Positions 7,899 to 63,375 of a DNA stretch of 64,000 nucleotides are shown piece by piece. Position 1 is the first letter of the stretch, and each line of letters begins with the position of its first letter. The position numbers and the translations under genes were made by a program. Source of the DNA: Flavobacteriales bacterium (lineage in GTDB: Bacteria > Bacteroidota > Bacteroidia > NS11-12g > UBA955). The notes below the pieces were generated by a model, which saw nothing but the letters and a program-made list of their open reading frames with translations, was not told the DNA's origin and made no database searches. Where the stretch lies: contig JBEIRK010000001.1 of assembly GCA_040376005.1 (NCBI GenBank), positions 12,150 through 76,149 of the forward strand, given 5' to 3'.

Positions 7899-7926
7899 AG
7901 CCCCGGAAACGGGGCTTTTCTTTTTT
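7899..7926 (+). terminator. Rho-independent terminator (agccccggaaacggggct + T-run) after tRNA-Gly
   Basis: GC-rich hairpin followed by tttcttttttt. Confidence 0.55.
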
Positions 7927-12075: not shown

Positions 12076-12109
12076 AAAAAAAGCGGCAGAAGCCGCTTGA
12101 TTGTTTTTT
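12076..12109. terminator. Bidirectional hairpin (aagcggcagaagccgctt flanked by A-run and T-run); terminates tRNA-Lys on the minus strand
   Basis: Stem-loop flanked by aaaaaaa on one side and ttttttt on the other. Confidence 0.5.
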
Positions 12110-12110
12110 G

Positions 12111-12183
12111 TGATCCCGCTGGGACTCGAACCCAGGACCCATACATTAAAAGTGTATTGCTCTACCAACTGAGCTACAGAATC
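12111..12183 (-). tRNA. tRNA-Lys (anticodon TTT)
   Basis: The reverse complement gives gattctg-ta-gctcagttggtagagc-a-ataca-cTTTTaa-tgtat-gggtc-ctgggttcgagtcccag-cgggatc-a. Anticodon loop is cTTTTaa. The acceptor stem has two G-U pairs. CCA is not encoded. Confidence 0.85.
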
Positions 12184-13374: not shown

Positions 13375-14511
13375 CTATGGGTTAGGATTCAGGGATATCT
13401 TTTCATCCCCTTCTTTCCAAGCCGTATAGGTTATGATGAATTGGAACATTTCGTCGGTAGCCCGCATGCTGGCTCCTCCGAATTCCAGTCTCTCTCCCAC
13501 CCACTGCGGCGGATCGAATGGGTTGTTGGGATTCGCGCGGGTGTTGTCAAAAGTTGCGATAGCCACAATTTCACTGCCCCTGGGCACAGGCACCATATGG
13601 GTAAAGGTGTAAAAGTATTGCCAGCGAAAATCCCACTTGGGAATGCTGATCAGCGGAATTGTATCTCCATTGGGTTTAATGGCGTAGGCCAAGAAACGGG
13701 TACCTAACATGTGCAAATGCGGGTTTATGGTGAGAATGGAGATATTCTCACCGACCATGAAGCGCGTGCTATGCTCTGTTTTCTTTCCCGGAGGAATAGA
13801 AAGTGGCGGAACAATGGGACTCACCCCATTGGTACCTAGCATAATTTCGCTGGTGGGGCGCTGCGGTGCTTTGTCCGTGAAAAAGAGATTAATCACACTC
13901 TTATCCATCACTTTTCTATCAGAAGGACCATAATGCATGTCGTTGCCGATGAATGCAAACTTGCGGCTCAAACGCACCGTGCCGATACCCGCAGGATATG
14001 CAGTGCCTAACACTCCGGGCAAATAGTTTACAGCACTGTGGATACGAAATGGCTTGGAGCCATCGTCATTTAAGAGATTCAATTTCAAGAAATCCTGGTC
14101 ATACTCCCCTTGTGTTATTTCTACTTTCAAAGGACTTTCCATCAAATTGGATTTCAAGTCGAAGGGATAGAGTAGCAAATGGCCATTAAAATGGTGCACC
14201 AAATCGGGGACCCCGGCCACAAACTCTGCGGCTTGCAGGAAGGTGTCGTGCGGCAACAGGCCTGGAATTTTAAAAATAAAAAAGCGGTCTTTCCCATTGG
14301 GCATGAGCAGCACAGAGTCTAAATGCAGCACCATATCTGGTTTGCCAATATTGCTTCTCCACTGCGGCAACTCCAACTTGGGGAGCTTGTCTATAGGTCC
14401 TTCAGGGGCGCCTTGTTTTTGCCAGTCGGCAATCATTTGAATCTCAGCATCACTCAGGTATTTTTCACCTATAAAATGTGAATAGTTTGGGTCGGCAGGC
14501 CAGGGAGGCAT
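13375..14511 (-). CDS. PHM/DBH-like copper type II monooxygenase-like domain protein, 378 aa as called; probably the C-terminal part of a cytochrome c fusion
   Basis: Putative Cu-ligand signatures: VHHFNGH (HH at residues 106-107), NPHLHMLG (HxHxLG) and DEMFQFIITY (EMxxxxIxY). The ORF has no signal peptide of its own and begins 8 nt after the cytochrome c ORF stop, in the +1 frame. Confidence 0.45.
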   Translation of the reverse strand: MPPWPADPNYSHFIGEKYLSDAEIQMIADWQKQGAPEGPIDKLPKLELPQWRSNIGKPDMVLHLDSVLLMPNGKDRFFIFKIPGLLPHDTFLQAAEFVAGVPDLVHHFNGHLLLYPFDLKSNLMESPLKVEITQGEYDQDFLKLNLLNDDGSKPFRIHSAVNYLPGVLGTAYPAGIGTVRLSRKFAFIGNDMHYGPSDRKVMDKSVINLFFTDKAPQRPTSEIMLGTNGVSPIVPPLSIPPGKKTEHSTRFMVGENISILTINPHLHMLGTRFLAYAIKPNGDTIPLISIPKWDFRWQYFYTFTHMVPVPRGSEIVAIATFDNTRANPNNPFDPPQWVGERLEFGGASMRATDEMFQFIITYTAWKEGDEKISLNPNP

Positions 14512-14518
14512 ACTTCTG

Positions 14519-14752
14519 TTACCCGTAACCCGAACAATGGTTTTGAGCTTTTTTTTTAACCTCTAAATAGCTCGTAAGCGGAAATGGGGCTGCGCCACTT
14601 TCTCTATGGCAAGGGGAACAATTCTTAAACACCAATGGTGCTATATTTTCTGTGAAGGTATATTGTTTCCCAAAGAAACTGCAGGATACTGCCAGAGACA
14701 ACGCCGCGATAAGAAAGAAAATCGTCCTTAATTTCATGGTTCTATAAAGCAA
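14519..14752 (-). CDS. Signal peptide plus c-type cytochrome domain (CSPCH heme-binding site; PSCyt-like IAPLVFKNCSPCH), 77 aa as called; likely the N-terminus of a frameshifted fusion
   Basis: MKLRTIFFLIAALSLAVSC signal peptide, then the CXXCH motif. The ORF ends just after an A9 homopolymer (coding strand) at + coordinates 14549-14557. Confidence 0.5.
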   Translation of the reverse strand: MLYRTMKLRTIFFLIAALSLAVSCSFFGKQYTFTENIAPLVFKNCSPCHRESGAAPFPLTSYLEVKKKAQNHCSGYG

Positions 14753-15285
14753 CCGTATGCTTCTGTTTTGCGCGTATAATCTACTTTGTTCTGGAAGATC
14801 GCATCCAAGGCATTCTGCAGATAGAAGATGCTGGGCTTATTGCGGTGTTTGCCCGTTTCAAAGGCATAATTATCCCAAGCGCCTTCGTACAATTTCTCAG
14901 AATTGGCATTCACTACACAAACATAAGGGGTTACAGTCACATCAAAAAGCCGTGCCATGCTGCCATCATCAAAGTATTCCTTGCTGCTAAACGGATTGCG
15001 CGAATTCCCAGGCTTTGCTTGAATCACACTTACCAATTTCCAATTCGGTTTTTCTTGCAGTAAAGCATCTATACGGGCAATTTCAGGTCTGTAGTATTTA
15101 CACAAGGGACAATCATCGGAGAGAAACACAAAAACTGCAACTTTTGTACTTGTTTCCAAGCCCAATTTTGGATGGTAAATAAGACTCGGCTTGGTATTGC
15201 TACACGCGCTGAGTGTCGCCAATAGCAGCAATGTCGCAATTGCGAAAAAGAGAGCCGTTTTAATGCGATTACTGAACACTTTCAA
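14734..15285 (-). CDS. Thioredoxin-fold lipoprotein (CPLC active-site-like motif), 183 aa
   Basis: Lipobox LSAC, then VAVFVFLSDDCPLCKYY, which is TlpA/ResA/thioredoxin-like. Its ends overlap both neighbouring genes in the operon. Confidence 0.5.
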   Translation of the reverse strand: MKVFSNRIKTALFFAIATLLLLATLSACSNTKPSLIYHPKLGLETSTKVAVFVFLSDDCPLCKYYRPEIARIDALLQEKPNWKLVSVIQAKPGNSRNPFSSKEYFDDGSMARLFDVTVTPYVCVVNANSEKLYEGAWDNYAFETGKHRNKPSIFYLQNALDAIFQNKVDYTRKTEAYGCFIEP

Positions 15286-17404
15286 ATGCTTTTACAAAGC
15301 GCACACCCAAGTTTTGGTAAGGCGGAATGTAATCATACCACTTGTCATTATTCTTCAACTTCTTATCTAAGGCTGCCCAAAGGGTAACCCAGTTTACCTC
15401 ACCTGTTCCGTCGCGCATCATCTCACACATATCTTTCAAGAGCACATCATTTACCGTCCAAGTACCTACCTGTTTGCTACTCACGATTTGCGCATCAGAA
15501 GCATTGTCCAGCACGCGTGCAATATTCAAGTAGCCCCCACAGCTGCCTAAAATGGCGATTTTCACATTATTGGTAAGCAAATCCACCGTTCCTGTAAGGT
15601 GGTAACTATGCCCACGATGCACCACAATATCCGGATAGCGTTTTTCGATTTCAAACAGTTTGCGCAGTACCTCGAGACCCATTTCTGATTGGGGCTTGTT
15701 GCAATACAATACAATTTTCTTGCCTTTGGTAGACTCGATGCGCGTGTAATGCGCCAATTCAGTCACTTTCCATCCTACAGCAGTTTTGAACTGTTGTACA
15801 AACCTCACATAGGCTGCTTCTCCATCTTCGTCATCATAGAACACATGCTGTTGCACGTTTTTATTATCGGGAAACAATAACCCTGCTTCTACTTTATCCA
15901 ACAGAGGAATATCAAAATTGATGCTTTTACCGGTAATGATTTCAGGCATACCTCCTGCCAATTTGAAGAGCAATCCATACAACCTCGCGCCGTATGTATT
16001 TCCGTTGGCATAACAGCGGTACAATTCAAACTTCAGCCGATCACTCATTTTTTCGCGCAGGGTACTGTCCGTAATTGAACCGAAAATATCTGCTACTTCC
16101 ACAGCGGGTTCAAGGTTGCCACCCGTGGTTTCGAGGCCTTTTACAATCTCATCAATAAGCAAATCCTTCTCCCCTGCTGTCATGGTGTTCAACACCTTTT
16201 GCATGGTATTGTATCCTGCGCACATTTGAACAAATGTTCTAAATTTATTCCAGCCTTGTTTTTGAAAAAACACGTACATAGAACTATCTGTTCTGCGTTG
16301 CATAAAGCGATTAAACAAGCCTAAGAAAGAGGAAGTAAAAATCTCATCGCGGCTATAGACCATAATATTGTAGAGTTCTACGTCGGATAGTTTTGAAGCA
16401 ATTGCAAAACGCACTTCGTCTTTTTCATCGTGCAACAAATTGATTTTTCGAATCACCTCCAAGCTGTGTTGGGTTAACTCTTGATCAACCGAATAAACGC
16501 CCAATATTTCTTTACTGGCTCGCAGCGCGCATAACTTTTTGAACCATGCATTTTTATTCTGCTGCAGAATTTCACTGCTGTCTATAGACATTCCGCGGTT
16601 GTACACCAGTTCTATATTGGTATAGCCAGAGCTCGCCCGACCATATTCTTGGAATATCTCATAGAGTTTTAAAACAACAGGATCCTTGCTCATTTGCAAG
16701 GTATTGTTTACAGGGTGTGAGGTACCAAAAAACTGTTTTACCGCGTTGGGGTCAAAGTGGGCAACAGTTTCAAGGACCGATAAAAACCAGGTTTCCCTAT
16801 TGTAGTCGAGGTATTTGGTAAGCACATCATAGGGTTTTTTACCCGCTGCGAAGGTGAGAACATCGCGGGCATAGCTTCTTTTAACAAAATACGGAATACA
16901 ATCCAGAGCTGTGAGTACATGATTCTTGAGCAGTTCCATGTCTTTTTGTGCGCCTAGGTTCAGGCTGAGCTTCTCGACCATGGAAAGATACTGTTCGAAA
17001 TAGGCCAAGTATCTCACATTGTTCTTATTGATATTTTGCAGGACAATACTGAGTGCTGCGTAAAAAGGTTGTTTTTCTTTTTCGGGAAAGGACGTTGCGG
17101 CTAAATTTTGTTGAATCCTATCTACGGTTTCAAAGAATATTTTCTTGCCGCGTACATTTTGTGCCATGGTATTAAAGAGCACCATGCTGTCCTTTTTGCC
17201 GTCGATAAGGTCAATCCGTTCTTGTTGCGTGTTGCATATCTCCACCATGGTTTCCACGGATTGAGCACGCAGAACTCCCGTGTTTCCTAGGAAAACTGAT
17301 CCAATCGCGATTGCGCATACTGCCACAATACGATGCCGCAAGCCACGGATATGTTGAGTGAGTGTTTGGTTCCAGCCTGAGGTATTTCTATGCATACATC
17401 GCAA
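15269..17404 (-). CDS. Large exported hypothetical protein (up to 711 aa) with a C-terminal caspase-like His...Cys signature
   Basis: The called start is a TTG. A later TTG or GTG gives M-RHRIVAVCAIAIGSVFLGNTGVLRAQS, a typical signal peptide. The C-terminal DIVVHRGHSYH...(24 aa)...KIAILGSCGGY resembles the hydrophobic-strand+H-G and hydrophobic-strand+x-C arrangement of clan CD peptidases (C25/CHAT/caspase-like). Confidence 0.35.
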   Translation of the reverse strand: MRCMHRNTSGWNQTLTQHIRGLRHRIVAVCAIAIGSVFLGNTGVLRAQSVETMVEICNTQQERIDLIDGKKDSMVLFNTMAQNVRGKKIFFETVDRIQQNLAATSFPEKEKQPFYAALSIVLQNINKNNVRYLAYFEQYLSMVEKLSLNLGAQKDMELLKNHVLTALDCIPYFVKRSYARDVLTFAAGKKPYDVLTKYLDYNRETWFLSVLETVAHFDPNAVKQFFGTSHPVNNTLQMSKDPVVLKLYEIFQEYGRASSGYTNIELVYNRGMSIDSSEILQQNKNAWFKKLCALRASKEILGVYSVDQELTQHSLEVIRKINLLHDEKDEVRFAIASKLSDVELYNIMVYSRDEIFTSSFLGLFNRFMQRRTDSSMYVFFQKQGWNKFRTFVQMCAGYNTMQKVLNTMTAGEKDLLIDEIVKGLETTGGNLEPAVEVADIFGSITDSTLREKMSDRLKFELYRCYANGNTYGARLYGLLFKLAGGMPEIITGKSINFDIPLLDKVEAGLLFPDNKNVQQHVFYDDEDGEAAYVRFVQQFKTAVGWKVTELAHYTRIESTKGKKIVLYCNKPQSEMGLEVLRKLFEIEKRYPDIVVHRGHSYHLTGTVDLLTNNVKIAILGSCGGYLNIARVLDNASDAQIVSSKQVGTWTVNDVLLKDMCEMMRDGTGEVNWVTLWAALDKKLKNNDKWYDYIPPYQNLGVRFVKAFESVQ

Positions 17405-32505: not shown

Positions 32506-32601
32506 TGCGAAATTTTGCATTATTAAGTTGCAATAATAGTTATCATCCCTTAGAATTCAAAAAAAAATCGAATTATTTTTTGATTACCACGGGTTTATAT
32601 T

Positions 32602-37099: not shown

Positions 37100-37164
37100 A
37101 TTTTTTAGGGGTGCAAAGATATGAATAAACTTCGAAAAGTAAAATACTCCTTCAAAAAAAAGGA

Positions 37165-50067: not shown

Positions 50068-50622
50068 TTAAATGGCACGTTGAATTTGTTCCTCGATTTT
50101 TTTTACTGCGTGAAAATAGCTGGCTTTCAAAGCACCAACCGAGGTACCTGTAACTTCAGACATTTGCTCATAGGTTAGGTCTGCAAAGTATTTAAGATGA
50201 AAAACCAAGCGTTGTTTTTCAGGAAGATGGAGTAAGGCTTTTTGCAGTTTTCGTTGGATTTCATCTGCGGAAATATATGCACCAGAATCGATAATTTGGC
50301 CCAATTCTAGGGATGCATTTTCCAAACTCAAATGCCCTCTTTTTTTGCGTAAGAGCATGAGGGCCTCATTGGTGGCGATGCGATAAATCCAAGTGTACAA
50401 AGCACAATCACCTCTAAAGGTAGCTAAATTTTCCCAAACGCGTATAAACGTAGTTTGTGCTGCGTCATCAGCATCATCATGCTCGATAACAATTCTGCGG
50501 ACATGGTGATACACTTTAACCTTAAATCGGCGCACAATTTCCATAAACACAGCCTGCCTATCGGAATAGGTTTGAATAGCTGCGGCTAGTTCGGAATCAT
50601 GCAACTGAGGTAAATCCAACAT
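50068..50622 (-). CDS. RNA polymerase ECF-type sigma-70 factor, 184 aa
   Basis: Region 2 ...FIRVWENLATFRGDCALYTWIYRIATNEALMLLRKKR and region 4 ...LPEKQRLVFHLKYFADLTYEQMSEVTGTSVGALKASYFHAVKKI. Confidence 0.85.
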   Translation of the reverse strand: MLDLPQLHDSELAAAIQTYSDRQAVFMEIVRRFKVKVYHHVRRIVIEHDDADDAAQTTFIRVWENLATFRGDCALYTWIYRIATNEALMLLRKKRGHLSLENASLELGQIIDSGAYISADEIQRKLQKALLHLPEKQRLVFHLKYFADLTYEQMSEVTGTSVGALKASYFHAVKKIEEQIQRAI

Positions 50623-54144: not shown

Positions 54145-54798
54145 TTAATTGTTCTTATTGTTTCCAAGGTCAAAGCGAAAACCGCAGTAAATCACATTAT
54201 GATAGGCACCCGTGCTGTAGAAAATAGAATTGGAGGCGCCTATGGACCGAATAGAGTTAATGCTGTACTGAGATTCTATAAAAAAGCGTCCTAGATTTCC
54301 GGTTTTATATTCTGCAAAAGCAGCGCCCAATACGTTCACTTTTCTTAAATCTGTATCTAGATTTAGAATGACACCTTCTTTCTCAGTTGCCTGCAACAAA
54401 TATGAGGTTCTAAATCCCAGTCCAAAAGAAAATTTATGATAGTACCTCACAATATAAATTGGGATATCAATGGATTGCATAATCATGTGAAAGGCACCAT
54501 TTCCTGGATTTTCAGGATCAAAGGGCCTTCTGCTGCCGCGAACAGAAAACTCAGCCCCACTGAGGTAGGACCAACCACCGCCCGAAGCAGCGCCAAGGCC
54601 TTGGCCCACAAGATATCCTACACCCATACCAAACTTATTGTACCCCGATGCATTGTCGCCGTCTATTTGACAAAAATTAGCACCAAGTCTTAGACCGCCA
54701 TAGAATTGTCCTTTATCAAATTGCGCACTGAGTGTGGGGAAGGCTGAAAAAAAAAGTGCAAAACAGCAATAGTATTTCAAAATGCTCAGTTTTCTCAT
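54145..54798 (-). CDS. Small outer-membrane beta-barrel (OmpW/porin-like) protein, ~217 aa
   Basis: Signal peptide MRKLSILKYYCCFALFFSAFPTLSAQ, alternating aromatic/Gly-rich strands and a C-terminal ...CGFRFDLGNN. Confidence 0.5.
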   Translation of the reverse strand: MRKLSILKYYCCFALFFSAFPTLSAQFDKGQFYGGLRLGANFCQIDGDNASGYNKFGMGVGYLVGQGLGAASGGGWSYLSGAEFSVRGSRRPFDPENPGNGAFHMIMQSIDIPIYIVRYYHKFSFGLGFRTSYLLQATEKEGVILNLDTDLRKVNVLGAAFAEYKTGNLGRFFIESQYSINSIRSIGASNSIFYSTGAYHNVIYCGFRFDLGNNKNN

Positions 54799-63304: not shown

Positions 63305-63375
63305 TGTATACAAATATATAAAAAAAAAGGCAGCTTTCATTCGAAAGCCGCCTCTATATTTGAATCGAAAAAGTG

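Follow-up and report, generated by a model that had tools for sequence, protein, structure and literature searches.

Two open reading frames (ORFs) lie in tandem on the minus strand of the 64-kb stretch of DNA analysed here, which is called the window throughout, and an A9 homopolymer lies at their junction. The homopolymer appears as T9 at 14549-14557 of the plus strand, where positions 14545-14560 read GAGCTTTTTTTTTAAC, with C and A on either side of the run. On the coding strand the same site reads GTT AAA AAA AAA GCT; the nine adenines form lysine codons 61-63 and are the site of one extra base. The upstream ORF (14519-14737, minus strand, 72 aa) occupies frame 0 and runs from an ATG at 14737 to a TAA stop at 14521-14519. 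It encodes a signal peptide with Cys19 and a haem motif, its C-terminus reads ...SYLEVKKKAQNHCSGYG, and its out-of-frame tail of nine codons, AQNHCSGYG, is unconserved. The downstream ORF (13375-14511, minus strand, 378 aa) begins with MPPWPADPNY at an ATG at 14511, 7 nt after the upstream stop, and has no signal peptide.

The original prediction placed the homopolymer at the junction of the two ORFs and proposed that deletion of a single A would join them into a continuous fusion of about 455 aa. Read-out of the sequence confirmed this position, and in-silico removal of one A gave a continuous product of 453 aa reading ...LEVKKKLKTIVRVTGNRSMPPWPADPNY..., while the addition of two A gave a product of 454 aa. 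With the extra A present, frame 0 stops 10 codons on and the remainder of the gene lies in the +1 frame. Restoration of the frame needs a +1 (or −2) shift at translation, or the loss of one A or the gain of two in the mRNA. The whole interrupted gene covers 1,363 nt (13375-14737, minus strand) and with A8 encodes a 453-aa lipoprotein-type protein that combines a cytochrome c with a PHM/DBH-like copper monooxygenase. The repaired product matches the database protein P0001 (453 aa) along 100% of its length at 99% identity. The 378-aa product that results from A9 is recorded in exact form (P0121) on a single 77,867-bp NCBI/ENA contig only. Immediately upstream is a gene for a thioredoxin-like lipoprotein of 181 aa (14734-15279, minus strand), which has a GTG start and a stop that overlaps the cytochrome c ATG (ATGA). 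Its match to Thioredoxin_2 (E 3.3e-5) is below the Pfam cut-off. The order of the thioredoxin-like gene followed by the cytochrome c gene is kept in all close relatives.

The repaired protein has a lipoprotein-type signal peptide, the Cys19 of which is conserved in at least 90% of homologues. Its haem c attachment motif, C40-S-P-C-H44, is encoded at 14606-14620 (minus strand, tgt tcc cct tgc cat). Cys40, Cys43 and His44 of this CSPCH motif and Met76 of an MPPWPA motif are invariant in 50 homologues, and Met76 is the probable distal haem ligand of the cytochrome c domain. Profile matches were marginal: Cytochrome_CBB3 of Pfam scored 19.1 bits, below its cut-off of 27, Cu2_monoox_C scored 23.3 bits on the C-terminal part, barely above its cut-off of 23, and a search of NCBIfam with the repaired protein gave no match. 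An AlphaFold2 (AF2) model built from a 50-sequence alignment (pLDDT 88.9, pTM 0.83) has helices at residues 28-39, 57-62, 64-72 and 96-107; after them, residues 135-440 form an all-β region. As in a c-type cytochrome, CxxCH and Met76 fall in one domain of the model, amid helices 28-39, 57-72 and 96-107. Foldseek matched the β region to PHM (3mll, E 9.5e-13; also 1phm) and DBH (4zel, E 1e-11) over ~335-370 columns at 14-16% identity, and the two-domain β-sandwich core of the PHM/DBH fold is present in the predicted model. Searches of the PDB by sequence, both single-sequence and profile, gave no PHM match, and the profile matches were confined to the CxxCH motif.

Residues H181, H182, H186, H233, H268, H340, H342, M424 and M430 are invariant in the homologues and would suit a set of CuH (His, His, His) and CuM (His, His, Met) ligands. 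By comparison with the PHM pattern, His181-His182 (14191-14196, minus strand) form a candidate CuH site and His340-x-His342 (13711-13719, minus strand) a candidate CuM site, and Met424 (13465-13467, minus strand) would also fit as a copper ligand of the PHM type. The predicted two-β-sandwich core is common to this protein and PHM/DBH, and the invariant HH pair, HxH and Met are candidate counterparts of their copper ligands. Unlike PHM and DBH, the present protein is a bacterial lipoprotein that carries a c-type cytochrome domain at its N-terminus, and it is paired with a thioredoxin-like lipoprotein. The N-terminal cytochrome c may replace ascorbate as the electron donor of the monooxygenase, and a built-in haem donor of this kind raises an interesting question of enzymology. 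A literature search on the cytochrome c/copper-monooxygenase fusion family found nothing relevant. The family, which comprises widespread Bacteroidota lipoproteins that join a c-type cytochrome to a PHM/DBH-like core, seems to be uncharacterised and is arguably of greater interest than the frameshift.

The break falls between CxxCH (residues 40-44) and the invariant Met76, and Lys61-63 lie within the helix pair 57-72 of the AF2 model. The ATG of the downstream ORF is the codon of Met76 itself. The homopolymer had been described as the junction of a cytochrome c ORF and a monooxygenase ORF, which is right for the ORFs and misleading for the domains: judging from the model, the frameshift cuts the cytochrome c domain itself and not the boundary between two modules. 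Met76 and the final helix are missing from the 5' fragment and, as had been claimed, the 3' fragment carries no export signal. Because the break splits the haem-binding CxxCH from Met76 and leaves the 3' half without an export signal, neither fragment would be expected, from conservation and the model, to function alone.

Among 5.8 billion proteins searched there are 2,741 homologues of ~450-470 aa, most of them in Bacteroidota metagenome-assembled genomes. Nearly all of the best 120 of the 2,741 measure 444-485 aa, and their coverage of the repaired protein is 93-100%. At the tract position the DNA was read in about 160 loci of metagenomes and GTDB genomes, and all of them are in frame; among the best 80 GTDB-representative loci listed, the top identity was 66%. 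These homologues and unsplit loci bear out the view that the two ORFs are halves of one signal-peptide/cytochrome c/Cu-monooxygenase-like gene. Orthologues consistently encoded as two genes would have pointed the other way, and the opposite was seen, with none of the ~160 loci split.

The consensus peptide at the tract across these ~160 loci is V-K-K-K-A/L-K-T. The longest A run at this position varies from 1 to 9 nt, and therefore the tract is not a conserved element of the family. An in-frame A9 occurs at the same basic patch in four distant homologues, L032-L034 and L153 (AGA AAA AAA AAC; CGA AAA AAA AAG). The lysine/arginine-rich patch appears to drift repeatedly to slippery runs without breakage.

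JGI entries of 378 aa (P0124; contigs L002-L004) were considered as independent split genes and rejected, since the contigs begin mid-gene and their DNA is in frame. Gene callers had placed the start of P0124 at the internal Met76, and such entries mimic the split in protein tables. They are a caution against counting split homologues from protein tables alone.

The close contigs were drawn from independent ENA, JGI, NCBI and Logan assemblies; nucleotide identity to the window is 94-99% for L001-L003, L005, L165-L173 and L179-L180, and ~76% within the gene for L174-L178. All 20 read AAG AAA AAG CTC (or CTG) and have the 453-aa ORF intact, and the interrupting G is thus retained even in the ~76% lineage. 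The nearest relative, which was found through a thioredoxin-like protein specific to the window (P0135), is the Logan contig ERR9973199_64507 (L181/L182) from the run ERR9973199, on which a literature search found nothing relevant. Aligned with the window over 11,889 nt (99.83% identity), it shows 19 mismatches and a single gap, which falls at the tract. The tract of this contig reads GTT AAA AAA AAG CTC (A8), and the ORF remains open through 448 codons, where the contig ends. The comparison of tract length in related genomes that had been proposed as a check has thus been made: the tract is interrupted in 20 of the 22 close contigs, A8 and A9 occur once each, and every tract compared with that of the window is in frame. 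Among the assemblies compared, the A9 allele is found in that of the window only. Read against these relatives, the window's tract is A8 plus one A, private to this assembly.

The tract lies in a patch of ~2.9 kb (~13,800-16,700) that the window has in common with L181/L182 and that is ~3% divergent from the common lineage. The patch spans the 3' part of a 638-aa gene, the thioredoxin-like gene and most of the cytochrome c/PHM-like gene, and the counts of synonymous to non-synonymous codon differences from the common lineage in these three genes are 42:4, 8:3 and 30:6, respectively. On its flanks there are 0-5 SNPs per 500 nt relative to L165-L173, and the lineage is otherwise 99.5-100% identical. 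The patch looks like an import by homologous recombination or the haplotype of a second strain that co-exists with the first. No further stop or indel occurs over the 1,137 nt that follow the shift. Because the changes are mostly synonymous and the sequence beyond the shift is otherwise intact, purifying selection appears to have acted on the gene until very recently. To look for a relaxation of selection after the shift, changes were picked out in which the window differs from both L182 and the common haplotype; there are two non-synonymous and two synonymous ones, which are too few for the purpose.

From these results, we consider that the two ORFs are one gene carrying a non-programmed homopolymer indel, real or artefactual, with a probability of roughly 0.9. 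Of the origins first proposed, sequencing error and natural frameshift mutation are both viable, whereas programmed or phase-variable frameshifting as an evolved feature is not supported, given the interrupted tract in 20 relatives, the A8 of the nearest relative, the ~160 unsplit loci and the lack of RNA structure. The history of the tract comprises four steps. The common lineage has AAG AAA AAG. In the rare haplotype, seen in an independent assembly, a synonymous change of AAG to AAA left an uninterrupted A8 with the frame intact. In the window one more A breaks the frame, and this A may have been added by strand slippage on the A8 run.

The frameshift is of an ordinary kind, either a homopolymer slippage mutation or a sequencing error. 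Like other bacterial homopolymer frameshifts (slippage pseudogenes and sequencing or assembly indels), it alters an A/T run of 8 nt or more by ±1, is private to one genome, and goes together with an intact downstream frame and intact orthologues. What is particular here, in comparison with these ordinary cases, is that the run itself was recently created by a synonymous AAG to AAA change that is visible in relatives. In many bacteria, runs begin to be prone to slippage, and to be selected against, at nine A/T; runs of nine are slippery in transcription and hypermutable in replication, and disrupted ORFs with 9A/9T have been listed (PMC1088944). If the extra A is real, the locus would be a small textbook case in which a synonymous change produced a hypermutable run that went on to break a conserved gene.

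The chances are about even that A9 is a real recent mutation, made through slippage by the DNA polymerase of the cell and resulting in a loss-of-function or leaky allele. In the ~24 kb compared, the tract is the sole indel inside a gene and the five other gaps are intergenic; the gap at the tract is likewise the sole within-gene gap in the alignments to L001, L165-L173 and L182. At 16 other A/T runs, each 6 nt or longer, the length is unchanged. The lack of any other coding indel and the constancy of these 16 runs argue against a generally error-prone assembly. On the other hand, A9 is present in one assembly only, a dominant loss-of-function allele would be unexpected in a gene so conserved, and the intact downstream frame and low dN/dS are expected equally from an artefact.

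A sequencing or assembly artefact, with one base too many called in the consensus of an organism whose gene is intact at A8, is a serious contender to which we give somewhat less than even odds. The nearest haplotype, which was assembled independently, has A8, and apart from the run at the break no A/T run in the window that reaches 9 nt lies inside coding sequence. No flaw occurs in the remainder of the gene, which shows purifying selection, and the record of the A9-derived product from a single contig is also consistent with an error. Set against this are the constancy of the other runs and coding frames described above and the contig names of the relatives (not of the window), which suggest short-read assemblers, where majority-consensus errors from A8 to A9 are uncommon.

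If A9 is real, some full-length protein might still be made through RNA polymerase slippage (A9 to A8 or A11) or through sliding of the ribosome on poly-A, and by analogy a leaky phenotype would be plausible. Such rescue would need the loss of one A or the gain of two. It is unlikely that A9 is both real and dominant in the population and that the cell still makes some full-length lipoprotein in this way. If this were true, a free-living freshwater member of the Bacteroidota would, through one synonymous AAG to AAA change, have acquired a new and leaky switch for the expression of a periplasmic cytochrome c/copper monooxygenase. Frameshifted genes of Buchnera and Blochmannia are said to be rescued by RNA polymerase slippage on poly-A, as Tamas et al. 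reportedly described in 2008. An interrupted gene rescued by RNA polymerase slippage is also found in tssM1 of C. rodentium, at an A11 tract (PMC4256274). As in these genes, at least 9 A lie at the break and −1 or +2 A in the mRNA restores the protein. In contrast, in the slippage-rescued genes both tract and split are fixed or conserved within the species, and experiments have demonstrated the slippage, whereas the present split is seen in one assembly.

The non-programmed indel may also be weighed against explanations in which the frameshift has been selected. Selected phase variation and programmed recoding are improbable even when taken jointly. Phase-variable contingency loci are the simple-sequence switches of Neisseria, Haemophilus and Campylobacter. 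Their features found here are a homopolymer early in the gene of an exported protein and two lengths of it among close relatives: the tract is at codons 61-63, the product is a predicted exported lipoprotein, and A8 and A9 both occur within one very close haplotype. Nevertheless, it is very unlikely that the A tract is a selected on/off switch operated by slipped-strand mispairing. In 20 of the 22 close contigs the tract is the non-slippery AAG AAA AAG, even in the ~76% lineage, the run length varies across the family with no other frameshifted member, and a single off allele is known. An uninterrupted repeat maintained with length polymorphism is thus not what was found. Moreover, unlike in contingency loci, the tract is interrupted in nearly all relatives with no sign of recurrent switching among them, and the organism is a free-living freshwater member of the Bacteroidota rather than a host-adapted pathogen.

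An evolved programmed recoding, by transcriptional slippage or +1 ribosomal frameshifting, would yield a short cytochrome fragment and the full-length fusion at a set ratio. The sense strand does carry a run of the length at which bacterial RNA polymerase slips (A9, against a threshold of at least nine A/T; PMC1088944), and there are precedents in T. thermophilus dnaX, Shigella mxiE and C. rodentium tssM1 (PMC1088944, PMC4256274). Despite these points, we regard programmed recoding as highly improbable. The site is conserved in no relative, and the orthologues have no slippery run in common. The two products are not both meaningful or conserved, as the 0-frame product is a cytochrome c domain cut before Met76 with an unconserved tail of nine residues. 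The sequence AAA AAA AAA GCT contains no stop or rare codon of the kind that +1 sites use, and the 89 nt 3' of the tract fold no better than shuffles (z −0.14), which gives no stimulatory RNA structure. That the ORFs are truly two genes, one for a small cytochrome c and the other for a cytoplasmic monooxygenase, can practically be dismissed: both ORFs are open and ATG-initiated, but no homologue is organised in this way (all are single ORFs of ~450-470 aa), the break is within a predicted folded domain, the downstream ORF has no signal peptide though every homologue is exported, and the apparent 378-aa JGI entries (P0124) are contig-end gene-calling artefacts with in-frame DNA. For annotation, the ORF pair should accordingly be treated as one frameshifted gene carrying a homopolymer indel (or corrected to A8), and not as a small cytochrome c next to a cytoplasmic monooxygenase.

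The A9 tract by itself is within chance expectation, since there are four A9/T9 runs in the 64-kb window and 8.6 ± 3.8 are expected from dinucleotide shuffles. What goes beyond chance is the full-length match of the repaired product, at 99% identity, to a 453-aa protein. The tract is significant through its location alone. No ORF is broken by any of the other three A9/T9 runs in the window: those at 32559 and 63320 are intergenic, and that at 54747 touches two divergent ORFs only at their disputed 5' ends. The frame is kept at the runs at 50097 and 57902. A terminator-like site 3' of a 204-aa ORF consists of a GC-rich hairpin followed by the U-tract at 63320-63328. A run at 37154-37161 is noncoding and lies between an O-antigen-ligase-like ORF of 410 aa and an rpmB-like ORF of 77 aa.

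The alignments to the relatives also differ at two other places in the window. Near a tRNA gene (12111-12183, minus strand) the alignments break, at 12095-12126 of the window and 7634-7718 of L001, with ~20-30 nt of overlap. The DUF218 gene by this tRNA is called as 339-340 aa in L001 and L179 versus 254 aa, and a T6/T7 length difference at 12076 is intergenic. At ~7907-7925 the window is without a GIY-YIG gene that relatives carry in one or two tandem copies of 100 aa. This gene has gatB on one side and the FGE-sulfatase gene on the other, and an 87-aa ORF often accompanies it; it is found at 16933-17283 of L165 and in two copies in L166, L169 and L170. In the window, 19 nt align to both sides of the gap. 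The difference is a copy-number variation of a small, possibly mobile GIY-YIG cassette.
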